Source of the DNA: an uncultured Candidatus Micrarchaeota archaeon
GTDB taxonomy: Archaea > Micrarchaeota > Micrarchaeia > Anstonellales > Bilamarchaeaceae
Length of the DNA stretch: 64,000 nucleotides
Direction of reading: 5' to 3'
NCBI GenBank assembly: GCA_963791815.1
Contig: CAWBTT010000002.1
Location: forward strand, 472,086-536,085
Below, piece by piece: positions 1 to 7,849 of this stretch. Each line of letters begins with the position of its first letter. Within the stretch, counting starts at the first letter, position 1. The notes beneath the pieces were generated by a model that saw only the letters and a list, made by a program, of their open reading frames with translations, was not told where the DNA came from and ran no database searches. The position numbers and the translations under genes were made by a program.

Positions 1-476
1 CCATCATCACTATCGAAAATAGAAAGGAACTTTTTGCGGTATAGTCCGAATCTCGAAGGCAATGAGGCTTTGGGGCAGGAGCCGTGAATCTGGATGGCAA
101 GATCATGCGGGGAGCGGCCGAATTCGGATTCAAGGAATATGCGGAATGCTGTCCGCTTTATGAGGGTTTCTTGGTCGAGGTAGACTATAGCATAATTTCC
201 CGTCGAACCTGAGGTCTTGGCAGGTTTGAGGGTGGCCATTGGAACTGCCAGGAACTGCTCGGGGTTTGAGATTACATCATTTTTGTCTGTTGGGGCAAAA
301 GAAGCAAGGTCAAAGGAACTTCCGGGTGGAGGAATTTTGCTTCCGTAATATTTTGTTTTTCTGGCGGCTTCGCGCAGCTGTGCCAGCCCCTTATTTTGTA
401 ATTCTTCAACTGGATTCCACTGTTCTTTTCTGAGTGCAAGGAAATGTTTGAGGAATTTTATAGAATCATGACTCAT
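1..476 (-). CDS. Phenylacetate-CoA ligase-like / coenzyme F390 synthetase-like adenylate-forming enzyme. Only the N-terminal part is in the window; the gene runs off the window start.
   Basis: Hand translation of the minus strand from ATG at about 474-476 gives MSHDSIKFLKHFLALRKEQWNPVEELQNKGLAQLREAARKTKYYGSKIPPPGSSFDLASFAPTDKNDVISNPEQFLAVP..., then a KTSGSTG adenylation P-loop-like motif. It parallels the N-terminus of the adjacent paralog 466..1743 (TSGSSGIPV). Confidence 0.5.
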   Translation of the reverse strand, partial: MSHDSIKFLKHFLALRKEQWNPVEELQNKGLAQLREAARKTKYYGSKIPPPGSSFDLASFAPTDKNDVISNPEQFLAVPMATLKPAKTSGSTGNYAIVYLDQETLIKRTAFRIFLESEFGRSPHDLAIQIHGSCPKASLPSRFGLYRKKFLSIFDSDD

Positions 477-1743
477 GGATATCCCGCGCTTTAGCTATTT
501 TTGAGACTACTGAGCGGCGTTTGCCGGAGGTTCCCCGAGGAACTGACTCTACCTGCTCAAAATCGACATGGACGGGCGCTCCAAGCATTGCACGGTGGAT
601 TTTGTTGATAACTTCAGTTTTCGATGAACTTGGAAGAGCATCTCCAGTTGGAACGTGCTTGAAAACAAAGTGGCCCTCATCCTCCTGCACAATCTGGTAT
701 TCCTTGAGGCCAGGAATGCCATAGAGGCAAAAGAGGGAGAAGGCGGAGCGGAGTTTCCCGCCTGGCAACATGATGAAGTCATCACTGCGCCCTTCTATGG
801 AATCAAGTACTGGCCATGTGCGGCCGCAGCTGCATTTGCCCCACATGCTTCTGTCGCCAATACGGTAACGTAGGAGGGGCATACCATGATTGACGAGGGA
901 TGTGACCAGCACCTCCCCGCTATTTGATGTTTCGTTTTTAGAATCGACAAGTTCTATGAGGAATGCGCCGGAATTGACATGGAGTTTGCCCCCCTCAGGG
1001 CATTCGTAGGCAATTGGACCGAACTCATTGCTTCCATAAAGCTGGTAAACCGGGCAGGAAAATGAATCTTGGATAAGTGCGCGGGTTTCAGGACCAAACA
1101 CCTCACCATAACAAAAGACATGGTTCATTTTCATTGGGTTTTTTGATTCTGCGTTGAGTTTTGCCATTATAGCAATTGTGGAAGTGTAGCCACTCAGAAC
1201 CTTTGATTTGGATTTCATCAGGGTTTCAAGGTTCTTCTCCTCACTATCGAAAACCGATAGGAACGTTTTCCGATAAAGCCCGAGTTTTGACATGAGCGTT
1301 TTTGGATAAATGACGTCGTGGACTTGGACCGCGAGCTCAAATGGAGAGCGGCCAAATGTGGATTCTATTAGGAAGCGGTAGGCAGTCCGGTGTATCAGAG
1401 TTCTGGAGTCTGCAAAAACACCCACTGGGATTCCGGATGAGCCCGATGTTCGGATTGCACGGAGGGATTCTGGAGGGGATGTAAGAAAGGATGATGGCGA
1501 TGCAACCACACTGTTTTTCTCGGTTGGGGGAATTGCATCAAGACTCTGGATTGTTTCTTTTGCCGGCATTTCCATGAGCATGCTGCCATAATGGGGGGTT
1601 TGTTTTGCAGACTCGATAAGTTTTTCTAGCCTTTGGGCCTGCAGAGAAGCGAGGGATTCTGAATATTGCTCTTTCTTTATATCTGAATAGTCTCGAACAA
1701 ATTGCACTAGGTCATGAGGCATACGCTGGTGCTCCGAATACAA
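466..1743 (-). CDS. PaaK-family adenylate-forming enzyme (phenylacetate-CoA ligase / coenzyme F390 synthetase-like), 425 aa
   Basis: AMP-binding motif TSGSSGIPVG, ~430 aa length and PaaK-like C-terminal domain. Tandem paralog of the truncated upstream gene. Confidence 0.7.
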   Translation of the reverse strand: MYSEHQRMPHDLVQFVRDYSDIKKEQYSESLASLQAQRLEKLIESAKQTPHYGSMLMEMPAKETIQSLDAIPPTEKNSVVASPSSFLTSPPESLRAIRTSGSSGIPVGVFADSRTLIHRTAYRFLIESTFGRSPFELAVQVHDVIYPKTLMSKLGLYRKTFLSVFDSEEKNLETLMKSKSKVLSGYTSTIAIMAKLNAESKNPMKMNHVFCYGEVFGPETRALIQDSFSCPVYQLYGSNEFGPIAYECPEGGKLHVNSGAFLIELVDSKNETSNSGEVLVTSLVNHGMPLLRYRIGDRSMWGKCSCGRTWPVLDSIEGRSDDFIMLPGGKLRSAFSLFCLYGIPGLKEYQIVQEDEGHFVFKHVPTGDALPSSSKTEVINKIHRAMLGAPVHVDFEQVESVPRGTSGKRRSVVSKIAKARDIHES

Positions 1744-2635
1744 CTAGGCGGATGTAAATCAATAGTTTCCTGGCAAGGTTGACATACGCCCGCTTGCCGT
1801 AGACTTCGTAGCCATTCTCCTCGATTACATGGAGAATCTCCCGATAAAGAGTAAATGCAAGGGAAATGACCGGGCGGACTTCCTTATGGAGCATTGCAAT
1901 CCCGTTTATCGCTTCGCTATAGTATTTTCTTGCGCGCGCAATCTGGAACTTGAGGAACTCCATGAGGCCAGAGGTCTTCCTAAGAGAAAGTATGTCCTGG
2001 ATTTTCAGGCCAAACTTGGCAAGTTCATCCTTTGGGAAATACACCCTGCCAAGCCGGGCATCCTCGCCAACATCACGAAGGATGTTTGTCAATTGCATTG
2101 CAATTCCAAGTTTGGTTGCGTATTTCTTTGCCTTTCCGATGTCTCCTACCCCCATGACATAGGTCAGCATTACCCCAACCACAGATGCCACGCGATAGCA
2201 GTATTGTTTGAGTTCTGCAAATGTTGCGTACTCCTTTTTTCTGATATCCATGCTCACCCCGCAGATGAGTTCGAGGGGGTATCTCTTGGGGATGGAATAT
2301 TTCTTCATTGTGAAGACAAATGAATTGAGTATTGGGTTCGTTGAGTAGTCCTTCTGGTATGTTTCGAGAAACTGCCGTTTCCACTCCCTTATCAGGGTTC
2401 TTTGGAGTTTTGGGTTGTCCTCATTGTCGTCAATGAGATTGTCTGTGTGCCTGCAGAAAGCATATACAGAATAAAATGAGTCGCGCAGCTCGCGGCTCAT
2501 GAATCTTGATGCGAAATAGAAGGTTTTCGACCCCTTGCGTATGCTCTGCTCGGCGTGCTTAAAATCAACGTGAATTTGTCCCACCTGTATTTTTTTAATC
2601 GGCAAACATTTATATCCCTCCCCGTCGGAAACCAA
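1712..2635 (-). CDS. Phytoene/squalene synthase family protein (CrtB/HpnD-like head-to-head isoprenyl diphosphate synthase)
   Basis: Conserved blocks GSKTFYFASRFM, YCYRVASVVGVMLTYVMG, AMQLTNILRDVGEDARLGRVYFP. Stop overlaps the PaaK-like start (1712-1743). The true start may lie downstream of 2635 because the divergent ABC promoter sits here. Confidence 0.75.
   Translation of the reverse strand: MVSDGEGYKCLPIKKIQVGQIHVDFKHAEQSIRKGSKTFYFASRFMSRELRDSFYSVYAFCRHTDNLIDDNEDNPKLQRTLIREWKRQFLETYQKDYSTNPILNSFVFTMKKYSIPKRYPLELICGVSMDIRKKEYATFAELKQYCYRVASVVGVMLTYVMGVGDIGKAKKYATKLGIAMQLTNILRDVGEDARLGRVYFPKDELAKFGLKIQDILSLRKTSGLMEFLKFQIARARKYYSEAINGIAMLHKEVRPVISLAFTLYREILHVIEENGYEVYGKRAYVNLARKLLIYIRLVVFGAPAYAS
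2609..2616 (+). promoter_or_regulatory. Putative archaeal TATA box (tttatat) about 22-29 nt upstream of the ABC ATPase start codon, implying a leaderless transcript
   Basis: AT-rich hexamer at the canonical distance from the ATG at 2638. Approximate coordinates. Confidence 0.35.
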
Positions 2636-2637
2636 TC

Positions 2638-3357
2638 ATGGCAGCTTCGCTCGAAGTCAAGGAACTTGCGAAAGTGATTAATGAGAAAATCATAGTCGAC
2701 AGAATCTCTTTCTCAGTTGAAGAAGGAGAGACATTCGGACTTCTGGGCGCCAACGGCTCTGGGAAAACGACCACTTTCAATATGCTCTCAGGGCTTCTCA
2801 AGCCATCGTCAGGAAGCGCGATGATACTGGGGCGCAGTGCCAAAGACGCAAAACGAGATATTGGATTTGTAACCCAAATGAATTCTTTTTATGAAACGCT
2901 CACGGTGCAGGAGAATCTGGAGTTTTTTGCTTCCCAGTATGGGATTGGGGGTGCCAAAAGAAAAGAGATTATCAAAAAGCTCCTGTCTCAGATAAAACTT
3001 ACCAATAAAGGCCAGGCTTTGGCCTCAACGCTCTCAGGCGGGATGAAAAAAAGGCTGAACATGGGCTGTTCGTTGGTTCATGACCCAAAGATAATATTCC
3101 TTGATGAACCTACAGTCGGACTTGACCCAGTTGTCAGAAGAGAGATATGGAAGCTGATAAAAGAACTCCAACACGAGAAGAAGACGATACTCATAACATC
3201 TCATTACATGGAAGAGATAGAGCAGCTCTGCGGCAGGGTGGCAATCATGTTTGCAGGGCGTATTGTGGCAAGCGGAACTGCAGCACAACTCAAGAAAAAA
3301 TACAAGCTCCAGCAGATGGAGGATGTGTTCGCACATCTTGTCAAGCCAACGGTGTAA
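2638..3357 (+). CDS. ABC transporter ATP-binding protein (ABC-2 type)
   Basis: Walker A GANGSGKTTTFNMLSG, signature LSGGMKKRL, Walker B IIFLDEPTVGLD, H-loop ITSHYMEE. Confidence 0.9.
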   Translation: MAASLEVKELAKVINEKIIVDRISFSVEEGETFGLLGANGSGKTTTFNMLSGLLKPSSGSAMILGRSAKDAKRDIGFVTQMNSFYETLTVQENLEFFASQYGIGGAKRKEIIKKLLSQIKLTNKGQALASTLSGGMKKRLNMGCSLVHDPKIIFLDEPTVGLDPVVRREIWKLIKELQHEKKTILITSHYMEEIEQLCGRVAIMFAGRIVASGTAAQLKKKYKLQQMEDVFAHLVKPTV

Positions 3358-3360
3358 ATC

Positions 3361-5289
3361 ATGAAAATACTACAGTCAATCAAGAAAGAGATACTTGAAA
3401 CTGCCCATGATCACACCATGCTGGCAGCAGTCATAGCATTTCCGGTTTTTGTCATGCTTTTCATGGGAAGCGCCTTTGGCTCAGTTGAGATTCACGGACT
3501 CCCGATAGGTGTGGTGGGACCTACAGGCACGTCATTTTCATCAGTCTTGTTTTCTGGTTTGAATGAATCTCCGGCTTTCAACCTGGAGAACTACGATTCT
3601 GAAGCAAGTGCTATGGAAGCCTTCAGGAATGGGGAACTTCGGGCATTGATAATAGTTCCAGATGATTTCGAGAGCGCTCTAATAGCTGGAAATGGCTCCG
3701 AGGTCCGGATAGCCATTGACAATTCAGATATCGCGCTTCAGGAAGCTGTGCTCGCGGCAATGGGCTCTGTTGTGCAAGCATCATCCACCAACATCACCAA
3801 GAGCTATGTTTCTGCTGCCTGGCAGGATTTGTATTCCCTCAATCAGTCGGCAGCAGCAATGACCGGGGACATAAACGAGAGCAAGGCAAAAATGGAAAGC
3901 ACAAAGACAAGCATCGATGCAATCAGGCAGAATATCAGCAATATTGGAATTGATGAACTTGAAGATTCCATCGGAGCTGCAAAAGACGAGGTCAAAAAAC
4001 TGCAGGATGCTGCCACAACAGAACAGAATGGCAGCTTCATCAACCAAAGCGAGGATTTCCTTGCAAATGCCAGTTTCGCTCTTAATGAATCCATTGAGAC
4101 CATCGGCACCACCCATACAAGGCTGGTAAATCAGGAAGACGAGATTAATGACACGATTGATACCCTCGATATCTCAATTGCGACGCTTTCTTTGATTAAG
4201 AACTCAACTTCAGACCCCATAACCGCAGCGGCTCTTGATGTCAATATAGCGACGCTGCAAACACTCAGGAACACCACAGCGCAGCAGGCAGAAGACGTCC
4301 ACACACAGATTCAGGAACTTGAATCGCTTAATTCAACATTATATTCATTCCAAGGAGAGCTCGAGGGTTACTCAGGTCTGCTCGCAGAGGCACAAGCTAA
4401 CCAAAGCAAGCTTGTTGGAGATATGCTTGGGAGCCTGGGCGCATTGAATGATACATTCACTGGTGCAGAGGAAACAATTTCAAAACTAAAGGGGCTCTTT
4501 GAGCAGATTGAATCCACAACTGATGAAATCGATGATACTTTGGATGATGTTCTGGACCAGGTTGAATCTGTTGAGGCACTAATTGATTCGTTGCAGGGCA
4601 CAGTTGCGGCGCAGACTGGCAAGGACCCTGAAACCATAGCCGCCCCACTTTCAGTAAAGGTTGAGAACCAGTATGTTCGGGAAAGTTTTGTTGATTTCAT
4701 AATCCCCAGGGTGATTGCAGTTTCTCTTCTGTTCTCGTGTTTCCTCCTTGCATCGATAAGCCTGGTTCGGGAAAAGAGCGGAAGAACCATTGTAAGGCTG
4801 CTTATGATGCCAGGTGCCTTTGCCAACTCTATTGCTGCCAAGATAATTTCGGTGACCCTGATATCTCTGGGGCAGGTCGGGCTGATTCTGCTCATCGGAG
4901 TCGTTGTTTTCGCAGTCAGGGTTCCTGCAGATTTGATCGCGGTCGGAGTGGCCACTGCCGTATCAGCTCTTGTGCTCTCAGCAGTTGGAACTCTCGTCGG
5001 ATTTTATGCAAGAACGGAATCCGCCGCCATTCAGACATCTTTGCTAATAGCAATACCGATGCTGTTCCTTGGCAACATCATATTTTCACCGGACTTGCTT
5101 CCCGCATATACCCAGATTATGCAGCAGATGCTGCCCCTTGCCCACATTACTAACATATTCAAGATAGTCCTGATTACCTCGGGCAACCCAGGGGCGAGCT
5201 TGGTTCCTTTGTTATCGTACTTTGTCGTCCTTGCGCTCATAATAGCATTGCTCGTATACAAAAGAAGGGATATTACGAACTATATCTAG
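3361..5289 (+). CDS. ABC-2 family permease with a large extracytoplasmic coiled-coil insertion (YhgE/Pip-like domain)
   Basis: N-terminal TM helix, about 400 aa Q/E/L/D-rich coiled-coil segment, then a C-terminal cluster of about 5 TM helices typical of ABC-2 permeases. Start is 4 nt after the ATPase stop. Confidence 0.7.
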   Translation: MKILQSIKKEILETAHDHTMLAAVIAFPVFVMLFMGSAFGSVEIHGLPIGVVGPTGTSFSSVLFSGLNESPAFNLENYDSEASAMEAFRNGELRALIIVPDDFESALIAGNGSEVRIAIDNSDIALQEAVLAAMGSVVQASSTNITKSYVSAAWQDLYSLNQSAAAMTGDINESKAKMESTKTSIDAIRQNISNIGIDELEDSIGAAKDEVKKLQDAATTEQNGSFINQSEDFLANASFALNESIETIGTTHTRLVNQEDEINDTIDTLDISIATLSLIKNSTSDPITAAALDVNIATLQTLRNTTAQQAEDVHTQIQELESLNSTLYSFQGELEGYSGLLAEAQANQSKLVGDMLGSLGALNDTFTGAEETISKLKGLFEQIESTTDEIDDTLDDVLDQVESVEALIDSLQGTVAAQTGKDPETIAAPLSVKVENQYVRESFVDFIIPRVIAVSLLFSCFLLASISLVREKSGRTIVRLLMMPGAFANSIAAKIISVTLISLGQVGLILLIGVVVFAVRVPADLIAVGVATAVSALVLSAVGTLVGFYARTESAAIQTSLLIAIPMLFLGNIIFSPDLLPAYTQIMQQMLPLAHITNIFKIVLITSGNPGASLVPLLSYFVVLALIIALLVYKRRDITNYI

Positions 5290-5337: not shown

Positions 5338-6756
5338 ATGGAAGAAACAAATGTGCAAACATCAGACGTAAAAAAGCACGTGGATGGACAAACGGATCCA
5401 CTACTCTTTGATAGTAAATTCAAAGATACTACTCCAAATGGTTTCATCAATATATTCAGAATCCTGTCACGACAACGGAAAAGCAAAAGACCGCTAACCA
5501 CATACTACCATCTCGATAATCGATGCAAAGATAGGATACTAGGGAGATTACTGGAAAAATTCAGGACTCTAGATAATGCCGCAAAAGCCATCGTAACCCA
5601 CAATGAAAGAAATAAAGGAAAACGATATGCTTCAAAAATTAAAGAAAAGTGGAGGGTTAAGAACAATCTCCAAAATGGAAATGTCACAATTTGGCATGCT
5701 CGCGTAGTGAGTCTGGTCCTTGCAAAAAATCATGCGGAGGCTGTAGAGATATTCGAGGAATTGTTTTCCAATTCAAGATTTTTAGTAGCAAAAGGCAAGG
5801 AAATTAGGTGTCCGCATAAAATTTCTGAATTGGGGCCAGCAGGGGCATATCTGGCGGGAGTGGTTGCCGGAGACGGTCACATAACCAAAAGTCTCGATGA
5901 GATAAAGATAGTAGATGGACACCAAAACAAGCGCTGGAAAAAAGATACTTTTTTGTTCCTAAAAAGTATTGATGGGTTAATAAAGGAAAAATTCGGCCTT
6001 ACTGCTTTCGTCGAGGAGAAAGACAACTATTTGGTATTTAGGTACGCATCCACGTTACTATGTTCAATATTGAATCATGTTTACGAGATACCTGCAGGAA
6101 GAAAAAGTAAGAAGATAAGAATTCCGAAAATTGTAAAGAATGGGCCCCATGAGCACCTATTCTGGAGGGGAATTGTTGATACTGATGGAAGCATTAGAAA
6201 GGGAAGCAAATTGATACGAATGACAACGACATCGAAACAACTATTTTTGGATTTCTTAGACTTTTGTAAAAGACACAATATCCACACATTTAGCAGAAAA
6301 AACAAGTTTGCAGCATATGGAGTTGTGGTAGCAGAAGAAAGCATAGCAAATTTTGCTAGGATAGTTGGAAGCAACCACCCAAGAAAAAGAGCCAACTTGA
6401 TCGAATATTTGAAGAAAGGGGCTTCTTACAAAGTACCAGTGAGTAAAAAACCAAATGAAAGACTAAACAAGATCATTGCGTATCTTAGGCCATACCAAGG
6501 GAATGTTTATGTCAGATTGACTAGTAGAAGGGAAGCGGTCGGGGAAGAAGTGGTGGAGAGATTGAAAAATATTGAGAAAGTGGTTGGGATGAGGCTTGTA
6601 GAAGTTAAAAGACCCAGAAAAAACAACCATTTTTATATTTGTTCGAGGGAGTTATTGAATGAAATAAACGAATGCTATGAATTCAAACATGTTTGGAGTC
6701 CGCTGAGTGACGAAGAAATTAATAGGATGAAAATACGGTGGGATAGATATGAATGA
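5338..6756 (+). mobile_element. Free-standing double-motif LAGLIDADG homing endonuclease gene (472 aa)
   Basis: Two LAGLIDADG motifs, LAGVVAGDGHITKS and WRGIVDTDGSIRKG, about 100 aa apart. Markedly AT-rich relative to flanks. No Hint/intein splicing motifs. A different frame from trpS rules out an in-frame intein. Confidence 0.75.
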
Positions 6757-7849
6757 GACGATTGATCCGTGGGGCCAAGTTAATGTAAAGAATTATGATC
6801 GTCTTTGCAAGAATTTCGGTATTGGTGATTTTTCAAAAATGGCTGTAGAAATGCCCGAGGCACCAATTTACATAAAAAGAAATTGTATTTTTGGCCATAA
6901 AGACTTTGGGCCGATTTTAAATGCGATAAAGAACAAAAAAAGATTCGTAATGATGACTGGTCTGATGCCATCGGGCAGTTTTCATTTTGGCCACAAACTA
7001 GTGGCAGATCAGATAATTTATTATCAAAAATTGGGCGCGGAGTGTTTTATTGCAGCTGCAGACCTGGAAGCATATCTGACCAGAGATATCCCATTGGACA
7101 AAGCAAGAGAAACCGCGATAGAAGAGTACCTCCTAAATTACATTGCCCTTGGATTAAAACCAGAAAAAACGCACTTTTACTTTCAAACTAATTGGAAAAA
7201 CGATTACTTGAATCTAAGTAAATTTGTTTCTAAAAAAACGACATTCAATGAGGTTAAAGCGATTTATGGAAACATAAATCCATCAAAGATTGTTTCGGCT
7301 TTGACCCAGGTGGCAGATATATTACACCCACAATTGGAAGTGTTCGGAGGGCCCAGGCCCACGGTGGTACCAGTGGGTGCGGACCAATTGCCCCACATAA
7401 ATTTCACACGGGATATCGCTGCTAGAATGAAGTCTGAATTTGGATTTGTGCTGCCCTCAGCAACATTCCACAAACTCATCCCTGGATTGCAGGGAGGCAA
7501 GATGAGCTCTTCAGTACCAGAAAGCAGCATCCTTTTCTCAGATAATCCCAAGACAATAAAAAAGAAGATAATGAAGTATGCTTTTAGTGGTGGCCAGGCT
7601 ACGATAGAAGAACACAGAGAAAAGGGTGGGAACCCAGACATTGACATTCCGTTCCAGTGGTTGAAGATGATCTTTGAGCCAGACGATAAGAAACTCAAGA
7701 AGATAGAGGATGATTACAGAAGCGGTAAGCTGCTTACTGGAGAACTCAAGCAAATTCTTGTCGAAAAAATAGATATGTTTTTAGAGGAACACAACAAACG
7801 TAGAGAGAAAGCCAGACGAGACATGCCTAAATTTATAGAAAACCAATAA
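6749..7849 (+). CDS. trpS: Tryptophanyl-tRNA synthetase (archaeal/eukaryotic type)
   Basis: HIGH-region equivalent SGSFHFGHKLV and KMSSS (KMSKS) motif. N-terminal DPWGQVNVKNYDRLCKNFGI matches the archaeal TrpRS N-terminus. The start overlaps the endonuclease stop by 8 nt. Confidence 0.9.
   Translation: MNETIDPWGQVNVKNYDRLCKNFGIGDFSKMAVEMPEAPIYIKRNCIFGHKDFGPILNAIKNKKRFVMMTGLMPSGSFHFGHKLVADQIIYYQKLGAECFIAAADLEAYLTRDIPLDKARETAIEEYLLNYIALGLKPEKTHFYFQTNWKNDYLNLSKFVSKKTTFNEVKAIYGNINPSKIVSALTQVADILHPQLEVFGGPRPTVVPVGADQLPHINFTRDIAARMKSEFGFVLPSATFHKLIPGLQGGKMSSSVPESSILFSDNPKTIKKKIMKYAFSGGQATIEEHREKGGNPDIDIPFQWLKMIFEPDDKKLKKIEDDYRSGKLLTGELKQILVEKIDMFLEEHNKRREKARRDMPKFIENQ

Follow-up and report, generated by a model that had tools for sequence, protein, structure and literature searches.

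An accessory array of CapK/VpsH-type ligase paralogues in a micrarchaeal genus and its possible role in the amide decoration of cell-surface glycans

The window analysed here is a stretch of 64,000 nucleotides from an uncultured Candidatus Micrarchaeota archaeon (GenBank assembly GCA_963791815.1, contig CAWBTT010000002.1), which corresponds to G000:C2:472086-536085, where G000 is the genome under study (1.47 Mb in 5 contigs, 88% complete). Positions 1-5289 of the window hold the beginning of an array of ligase genes, P1 to P8, whose sequences assign them to the CapK/VpsH branch of the ANL adenylate-forming superfamily as diverged paralogues. The array is accessory and strain-variable, and it fills a variable slot between a CrtB-like gene of the squalene/phytoene synthase family and a Pelota gene. 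Gene content, family membership, distribution, genomic contexts and phylogeny are the ground from which we infer chemistry, acceptor and co-transcription: on balance, the ligases are probably amide-forming enzymes that decorate cell-surface glycans and do not act on the CrtB product, the array being an accessory kit.

The original prediction, made from the letters of the window, had described two tandem PaaK-like paralogues in a cluster that continues beyond the window start. The cluster does go on. The 15 kb before the window start (locus L005) contain six more ligases together with a GNAT, a BKACE and a FemX-fold gene, and the two paralogues, both real, are the first two of eight. The whole minus-strand unit (G000:C2:461478-474669) spans 13.2 kb and comprises 12 tightly packed genes in the order CrtB-like, P1, P2, P3, P4, GNAT, BKACE, P5, FemX-fold transferase, P6, P7 and P8. 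Neighbouring genes overlap by a few bases or lie no more than 41 bp apart, larger apparent overlaps vanishing with internal start codons, and the end of the unit is convergent on a Pelota/eRF1-like gene. A ninth ligase copy of G000 is located on contig C3.

The ligase family and its genomic settings

The eight paralogues are 29-51% identical, P1 and P2 sharing 51%, and the core motifs of the ANL enzymes (TxGSxG, Y..E, D, CxCGR and GK) are kept in 8/8 of them, with T99, G101, S102, G104, Y236, E240, D297, C304, C306, G307, R308, G407 and K408 invariant; the motifs TSGSSG and KTSGSTG, quoted in the original prediction, are found in the translations. The public gene call for P1 is also of 418 aa and carries PF27533 and PF00501, and precomputed PF27533 matches are present on P1 and most of its relatives in a collection of 5.8 billion proteins. 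P2 gives an AMP-binding match of 4.4e-9. Close relatives are named AMP-binding protein by their sources (Candidatus Micrarchaeota archaeon; Candidatus Bilamarchaeum sp.), and a more distant relative from Methanolobus is named "Capsule biosynthesis protein CapK". When solved structures are searched with a profile built from the eight paralogues, 4r1l matches best (6.6e-45 over 352 profile positions), followed by 9s3l, AjiA1 and NatL2, and then by PaaK1/2. True PaaK-architecture proteins, those with PF14535, score only about 100 bits against the profile.

Canonical phenylacetate-catabolic PaaK is excluded as an identity for these proteins. All ligase scores are far under the cut-offs of the curated models for PaaK, F390 synthetase, FlxY, BagE and the DVU_1553 family: 28-105 bits against a cut-off of 646 on TIGR02155 (PaaK), 47-103 bits against 700 on the haloarchaeal PaaK model NF041878, and 27-51 bits against 458.7 on TIGR03335 (coenzyme F390 synthetase, FtsA). 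The domain AMP-binding_C_2 (PF14535) was absent from a whole-genome search of G000, the control search being positive in 8/14 genomes, and PaaA_PaaC (PF05138) was not found in this 88% complete genome. It is these low scores, taken together with the lack of AMP-binding_C_2 and of PaaA/PaaC, which argue that the ligases are not phenylacetate-catabolic PaaK. The array ligases share with PaaK1/PaaK2 and BT_0428-type proteins (PDB 2y27, 2y4o, 4r1l) the two-domain ANL fold family and the core motifs, but differ from the PaaK type in their low PaaK scores, in lacking the PF14535 domain and in lacking a paaABCDE context. The original prediction had named paaABCDE genes nearby upstream as a finding that would speak against it; the 13 kb upstream hold ligases, GNAT, BKACE and the FemX-fold gene.

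The genus comparison included 39 other same-genus genomes, giving 40 genomes with G000, and ligases were searched with the eight-paralogue profile at E up to 1e-10. The other arrays of the genus (3-6 copies) are located among glycosyltransferases of families GT4 and GT2, a Wzx-type flippase (Polysacc_synt/MatE/MurJ), polysaccharide pyruvyl transferase and CysD/CysN, and the same glycan loci also hold proteins of the alkaline phosphatase family and pyridoxal-phosphate enzymes. The locus of the ninth G000 copy reads Wzx, phosphodiesterase, CysD, CysN, phosphodiesterase, GT2 and ligase. By a neighbour rule, 35 of the 87 genus copies have a glycan-locus setting; the eight-gene array of the window is without one. 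As read from the gene maps, a polysaccharide pyruvyl transferase stands directly beside a ligase in 8/12 glycan-locus arrays of the genus (L050-L060, L077), which may hint at a carboxylate acceptor.

Distant relatives were searched with five sequences as query in one-genome-per-species collections of bacteria and archaea, and the confirmed stretches, more than 598 of them, come from many phyla of both domains. Contexts were read from 21 loci with full flanks by comparing three open reading frames (ORFs) on each side with Pfam (L110, L124, L127 and L152 were left out; L110 and L152 had doubtful ORF calls at the ligase). Polysaccharide genes are near the ligase in 17 of these 21 loci; one locus is ambiguous (DUF354 only), and none were seen in L094, L122 and L129. 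A FemAB/Acetyltransf_6 neighbour occurs in two of the 21, and a pyruvyl transferase domain in 0/126 of the neighbouring ORFs.

In a tree of 87 genus ligases and 7 outgroups, from which rows with fewer than 350 matched profile positions were excluded, the genus ligases form one group (support 99), and many of its subclades mix members from the slot with members from glycan loci. For P3, P4 and P8 the tree places glycan-locus proteins as sisters or near sisters (support 93-98). The ten ligases that adjoin CrtB are found in three separate places of the tree, which requires at least three changes of state, and a tree that forces them together is worse by 277 log-likelihood units (approximately unbiased (AU) test, p 1.2e-6, for a group defined by gene position but named after the FastTree tree had been seen). 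This rejection of monophyly rules out a specific pairing between CrtB and a ligase. The presence of different paralogues next to CrtB could come from an ancestral array after CrtB followed by differential loss.

Amide decoration of glycans and competing chemistries

If the ligases decorate surface glycans, each of them would adenylate a carboxylate with ATP and hand it to an amine, so that a lipid-linked glycan or glycoconjugate of the cell surface would receive a substituent in amide linkage; the paralogues would differ in the substituent or the position that they serve. An amino acid taken from aminoacyl-tRNA would be the contribution of the FemX-fold protein, and the GNAT and the BKACE would supply or transfer groups derived from acyl-coenzyme A (acyl-CoA). 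The carboxylate might be borne by a pyruvyl ketal or by a free amino or hydroxy acid that becomes joined to an amino sugar; other bearers are conceivable too. The parallel is VpsH of Vibrio cholerae, a PaaK/CapK-like protein which, according to the genetic evidence described, is needed for glycine addition on the lipid-linked disaccharide of Vibrio polysaccharide (VPS) (PMC13463779). As described in that source, VpsH is likewise a member of the ANL/PaaK superfamily with distant likeness to true PaaK, it belongs to a Wzx-type glycan locus, as do the array relatives and the ninth G000 copy, and the genetics point to an amino acid added to a lipid-linked sugar. On the other hand, VpsH is described as a single gene acting on a uronic acid, whereas up to eight tandem paralogues are present here and G000 by contrast shows no UDP-sugar dehydrogenase, and the vps locus, as described, is without the BKACE and FemX-fold companions of this array. 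Archaeal N-glycans with threonine-amidated uronic acids have also been described (PMC11407970), and G000 contains an STT3/AglB match.

The BKACE of the unit is a member of its family (PF05853, 304.3 bits) and scores under the cut-off of the Kce equivalog (NF052387, 288.3 against 382). The FemX-fold protein, 312 aa long, has no Pfam match itself and only a weak match to TIGR03019; a word-index homologue search returned the protein alone, a full HMMER scan gave 1134 relatives, and Acetyltransf_6 is present in 15 of 50 aligned sequences (49 relatives and the query, itself without the match). Its alignment-based model has a predicted local distance difference score (pLDDT) of 92.9, against 35 for the single-sequence fold, and matches FemX, Sbb17, Sba18 and the C-terminal domain of MprF, which have the tandem GNAT fold (Foldseek E 6.6e-12 to 1e-9), the top fold matches having a probability of 1.00 with an identity of 13-17% and a TM-score of only 0.46. 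What it has in common with FemX, Sbb17 and the MprF domain is the fold, together with Acetyltransf_6 on its sequence relatives; it differs in that low identity and in its lack of a Pfam match, and its use of aminoacyl-tRNA is a prediction.

Several observations weigh against glycan decoration. UDP-sugar 6-dehydrogenase (PF03721) was not found in G000 at its 88% completeness, and uronic acids, the acceptor of the VpsH type, may consequently not be made there. Pfam and NCBIfam scans of the upstream region revealed no glycosyltransferase or flippase inside or beside the window's own array. The best NCBIfam match of the ligases is the DVU_1553 family, which is named CoA ligase (105-137 bits, cut-off 300; 104.8 bits for P2), and no in vitro assay of any enzyme of this ligase clade was found in the literature. 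In relatives the ligases are mixed with proB/proA/proC, a dehydrogenase and BKACE, a setting that is also compatible with soluble metabolism of amino acids or acyl-CoA. A functional tie to CrtB may still exist, considering that CrtB is present in 14/14 ligase-bearing relatives, that a ligase copy is in the slot in 13/15 genomes and that P1 overlaps the CrtB stop. Finally, CrtI was found in only 3/39 same-genus relatives; the CrtB-like enzyme thus works without this desaturase in most of the genus, and a carotenoid reading of it holds for G000 and not necessarily for the genus.

A bolder version of glycan decoration, which we regard as improbable, is that the arrays are a combinatorial, ribosome-independent amide kit in which up to eight CapK-type ligases and the FemX-like transferase build an oligo-amide or peptide-like chain on a surface glycan, that is, a glycopeptide coat. 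The chain would perhaps be set on the carboxylates of pyruvyl ketals, an anchor suggested by the pyruvyl transferase beside the ligase in 8/12 arrays and by the missing UDP-sugar dehydrogenase of G000. If this were true, the presence or absence of paralogues from strain to strain, and their reshuffling, would encode surface diversity for host attachment or virus evasion.

The same enzymes could instead form a small-molecule assembly line. Its product, a diffusible oligo-amide or pseudopeptide of the dapdiamide or streptothricin kind, would be built by the ligases together with the FemX-fold transferase, the GNAT and the BKACE, and exported by the ABC-2 pump, which is of the ATP-binding cassette (ABC) class. 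The 12-gene co-directional unit without a glycosyltransferase fits such a product, as does the promoter region that the exporter and the head of the operon have in common. NatL2 and AjiA1 are among the solved relatives, P8 alone weakly matches the model of the dapdiamide ligase DdaG (6e-4), and the FemX-fold model matches Sbb17 and Sba18, which are aminoacyl-tRNA-dependent peptide synthases acting on streptothrisamine. NatL2, AjiA1 (PDB 6siw, 6wuq) and DdaG are likewise stand-alone enzymes of the PaaK superfamily. NatL2 and AjiA1 reportedly form ester or amide bonds directly without CoA. Dapdiamide ligases are described as forming their bonds directly without CoA too (PMC13463779). These enzymes act on small aromatic or dicarboxylic acids in bacterial antibiotic pathways, and the relation of NatL2 and AjiA1 to the array ligases is at superfamily level only (1e-33 to 1e-34). 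Against a diffusible product, the orthologues of P3, P4 and P8 are in the glycan loci of relatives, the wider clade is among polysaccharide genes in 17/21 loci, and the ABC pair stands beside CrtB regardless of ligases and is absent from arrays elsewhere, all of which makes an assembly line unlikely.

The default annotation "phenylacetate-CoA ligase", which is also among the names given by sources, implies plain acyl-CoA ligases that turn scavenged organic or aryl acids into CoA thioesters for salvage or catabolism. The name of the best-matching NCBIfam family agrees with this, and the neighbouring GNAT and BKACE, which use acyl-CoA, recur in a GNAT-ligase-BKACE arrangement in at least six loci; the amino-acid genes mixed among the ligases of relatives can be read in the same way. 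This explanation has to contend with scores far under the cut-offs on all the curated PaaK, F390 and CoA-ligase models, with the lack in G000 of the PaaK-type C-terminal domain and of PaaA/PaaC, and with an all-or-none accessory distribution and arrays inside glycan loci, and we consider it a poor candidate, somewhat behind the assembly line.

The slot between CrtB and Pelota

The ligase family is present in 14/39 same-genus genomes, in 1-9 copies and in an all-or-none manner. In a survey of the phylum, an even draw of 300 other genomes that included 22 of the same genus, the ligase profile matched 5/22 same-genus genomes and elsewhere gave two weak matches (237 and 194 bits), and a CrtB-like match at 1e-20 was found in 31 of 301 genomes. 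Close orthologues of the CrtB-like protein (60-81% identity) are encoded in 30/39 same-genus genomes, of which 14 carry ligases, these being all the ligase-bearing relatives, and 16 carry none. Gene maps were made for 20 CrtB loci, and likewise for the arrays elsewhere in the genus and the CrtB loci outside it, by picking the longest ORFs and comparing them by BLASTP with G000 references; such maps mislabel some genes, and Pelota (L005) and CrtB (L041, L033), masked by overlapping ORFs, were corrected by hand, as was a ligase of L039 labelled u283. The backbone of the locus consists of a tryptophanyl-tRNA synthetase (TrpRS), the ABC permease, the ABC ATPase, the divergent CrtB, a variable insert, the convergent Pelota, a CxxCxxCC protein, a 179-aa protein and a protein of 702 or more aa. 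Where no array is present, as in G044, G018 and G005, CrtB and Pelota face each other convergently with nothing in between. The number of ligases in the insert ranges from 0 to 8, and in relatives it also contains proB, proA, proC, a Glu/Leu-type dehydrogenase, GNATs and BKACE.

The prediction that the CrtB-like gene and the ligases are syntenic elsewhere was borne out. Among the 15 ligase-bearing genomes (G000 included), a ligase directly follows CrtB in ten and is found further along the slot in three, which makes 13/15 with at least one ligase in the CrtB-Pelota interval; G045 and G054 have none in the slot.

Other cargo was also seen. The slot of G010 (L043:5512-9600) holds a fused NDK/B12-binding radical-SAM protein, a GT2 and a radical-SAM/SPASM protein instead of ligases. 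A GNAT-ligase-BKACE module, which resembles the P4-GNAT-BKACE-P5 core of the window's array (G000:C2:466158-470035), is present in at least six loci (L061, L064, L068, L070, L073, L076), away from CrtB and glycan genes. The genes proA, proB and proC, which lie in the slot of many relatives, were not found in the 88% complete G000 when searched by tblastn with the proteins of relatives (E up to 1e-8).

The CrtB-like protein matches PF00494 (SQS_PSY) with 250.6 bits against a cut-off of 26 (2.8e-74) and stays below the cut-offs of the NCBIfam equivalogs: 221.5 against 550 for cyanobacterial CrtB, 219.2 against 278.6 for HpnD and 153.3 against 250.45 for HpnC. Its translation contains DNLID and DVGED, which we take to be the two Asp-rich motifs of SQS_PSY. 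The orthologues align only from residues 10-22 of the long frame, and GTG 2584 is accordingly the likely start. Elsewhere in the genome, a carotenoid-type cluster (C1:66224-69963, L079) comprises a methyltransferase-like gene, a CrtI-family desaturase (482.6 bits, cut-off 238.1), an adjoining gene for a lycopene-cyclase-domain protein (40.6 against 39.4) and a GT2; G000 also has one polyprenyl synthase and a second, distant SQS_PSY paralogue. Outside the genus, where the CrtB-like homologues compared are 32-45% identical, CrtI is beside CrtB in 4/10 loci (in one of them with a cyclase-domain gene between) and the ABC pair in 0/10. G000 thus resembles the CrtB/CrtI clusters of other families in the phylum in encoding CrtI, a cyclase-domain protein and a polyprenyl synthase, but in this genus CrtB stands apart from CrtI, and 36/39 relatives showed no CrtI. 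The best reading of the CrtB-like protein is a phytoene-synthase-type enzyme of a dispersed carotenoid pathway, which would head the unit by position and not by function.

One pathway that makes and exports a modified isoprenoid, as originally predicted, is poorly supported by these data. Here the ligases would act on the CrtB product, for example by amidation or esterification of an oxidised carotenoid or another C30/C40 acid, and the resulting lipid would be exported or flipped by the ABC-2 pump. The arrangement in the window invites the idea: CrtB heads the unit and has one TATA box in common with the ABC ATPase, the CrtB stop codon is overlapped by P1, a ligase directly follows CrtB in 10/15 genomes and is in the slot in 13/15, and CrtB is present in 14/14 ligase-bearing relatives, a count that overstates the link, these relatives being kin and not independent. 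Yet 16 relatives keep CrtB without any ligase, two genomes keep all their ligases away from CrtB, and the ligases adjacent to CrtB are not one clade (at least three state changes, AU p 1.2e-6). Orthologues of array members are found in glycan loci of relatives. Outside the genus CrtB is accompanied by CrtI in 4/10 loci and by the ABC pair in none of the ten; G000 has its own cluster of CrtI, cyclase-domain and GT2 genes; and an enzyme that oxidises a carotenoid to an acid was not seen, no search having been aimed at one. A modified isoprenoid is in our estimate the least probable of the products considered.

Within this genus, and only here, the ABC-2 pair belongs to the conserved backbone around CrtB. 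It stands beside CrtB with or without ligases and is absent from arrays elsewhere in the genomes. Orthologues of the ATPase (TIGR01188 drrA, 248.6 bits, under the cut-off of 312) are 65-85% identical and adjoin CrtB in most same-genus loci. The permease has one N-terminal hydrophobic segment (residues 17-44) and four to five C-terminal ones (442-636), and between them about 400 hydrophilic, sequon-rich residues, of which the region 125-428 gives only weak matches of the SMC coiled-coil type. A Pip/YhgE-like coiled-coil insert had been proposed for this protein; the hydrophilic region after the first transmembrane segment and its weak coiled-coil matches agree with that, but no YhgE/Pip model was among the 15 NCBIfam families matched by the permease (E up to 0.01). 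Its ABC2_membrane_3 match of 107 bits is well over the cut-off of 31.6, and a sequence search of the PDB with the permease found only ABCG transmembrane domains (5e-9). A defence system was considered and rejected: PADLOC matched the transporter only to generic entries of the ABC/SMC type, and neither the ligase nor the FemX-fold protein nor the BKACE had a match.

All five gene products named in the original prediction are present at the positions it gave (Table 1). The order was the reverse of that described, CrtB coming first on the minus strand; P1 has an overlap of 11 nt with the CrtB stop at one end and of 11 nt with the P2 start at the other. The divergent ATPase, said to start with essentially no intergenic space, is separated from the likely CrtB start by the 53-bp spacer. 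In that spacer the TATA-like element is 24 nt away from the GTG of CrtB and 22 nt away from the ATG of the ATPase, and the element AAA[CG][AG]TTTA[TA]A[TA] is found upstream of CrtB in 10/10 relatives' loci in which the spacer was read. The spacer measures only 51-55 bp in 6/14 loci examined, so that one element would serve both directions. Archaeal TATA boxes are located about 26 nt before the transcription start. These distances suggest that one shared TATA-like element drives two leaderless divergent transcripts, the CrtB unit and the ABC pair.

Table 1. Features at the window start and further genes of the unit (positions in the window)
Feature	Position	Strand	Length	Remarks
Ligase P2, N-terminal part	3-476	-	158 aa of 408 aa	Frame open at window start; full gene G000:C2:471335-472561 (L005:14250-15476)
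Ligase P1, CapK/VpsH-branch ANL adenylate-forming enzyme (by sequence)	466-1722	-	418 aa	ATG at 1722; open frame reaches TTG at 1743
CrtB-like gene, squalene/phytoene synthase family	1712-2584	-	290 aa	GTG start at 2584; open frame to 2635
Divergent spacer	2585-2637	.	53 bp	TATA-like TTTATAT at 2609-2615
ABC transporter ATPase, DrrA/NodI-like	2638-3357	+		ABC_tran 3.1e-30
ABC-2 permease	3361-5289	+		ABC2_membrane_3 107 bits, ABC2_membrane 64 bits
P3			420 aa	
P4			419 aa	
GNAT			155 aa	
BKACE			about 297-321 aa	
P5			about 407-428 aa	
FemX-fold protein			312 aa	
P6			416 aa	
P7			414 aa	
P8			410 aa	

Two observations concern the flanks of the locus. A 359-aa ORF with a weak CxxCxxCC match (L005:2729-3808; G000:C2:459814-460893, minus strand) overlaps Pelota on the opposite strand; only its C-terminal part of about 190 aa is kept in relatives, and the real gene is thus probably much shorter. 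On the other side, the TrpRS of the window (6749-7849) has an identity of only 35-38% with its positional counterparts in nine same-genus loci, compared with 59-91% for the flanking genes, and together with an upstream LAGLIDADG ORF (5338-6756) it occupies a low-GC stretch (0.37-0.40 against 0.45-0.49 around it). It looks as if a foreign trpS, in company with a homing-endonuclease gene, had taken the place of the original one.

Implications for the genus and the ligase family

The CapK/VpsH family and its association with glycans are already known in outline. The type 1 capsule of S. aureus reportedly carries amide-linked taurine, with cap1K as a putative member of this family, and the threonine-adding enzyme of M. 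maripaludis is reportedly F390-synthetase-like. In the literature we met no account of a DPANN genus with tandem arrays of 3-8 diverged copies, or of an association with BKACE and FemX-fold proteins; a paper on Micrarchaeota that touches on phenylacetate names only PaaD, and one on Bilamarchaeum makes no reference to phytoene, carotenoid or F390. Ligases of this type are very widespread yet almost uncharacterised, and the functional evidence found is the 2026 genetic study of VpsH, as far as that source describes it. Within a single DPANN genus with small genomes, most ligase-bearing genomes have 4-9 diverged intact copies in compact arrays, a ready-made set of paralogues from which the substrate rules of these enzymes could be deduced.

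The locus also carries a caution for the reading of gene clusters. What looked like a single pathway, an operon of closely packed and translationally coupled genes with CrtB at its head, proved in the comparison of 40 genomes to be a variable slot with changing cargo. The lineage relies on cell-cell contact. With nine ligase copies, G000 devotes about 11 kb of its 1.47-Mb assembly to these genes, apparently a considerable outlay for variable surface chemistry.

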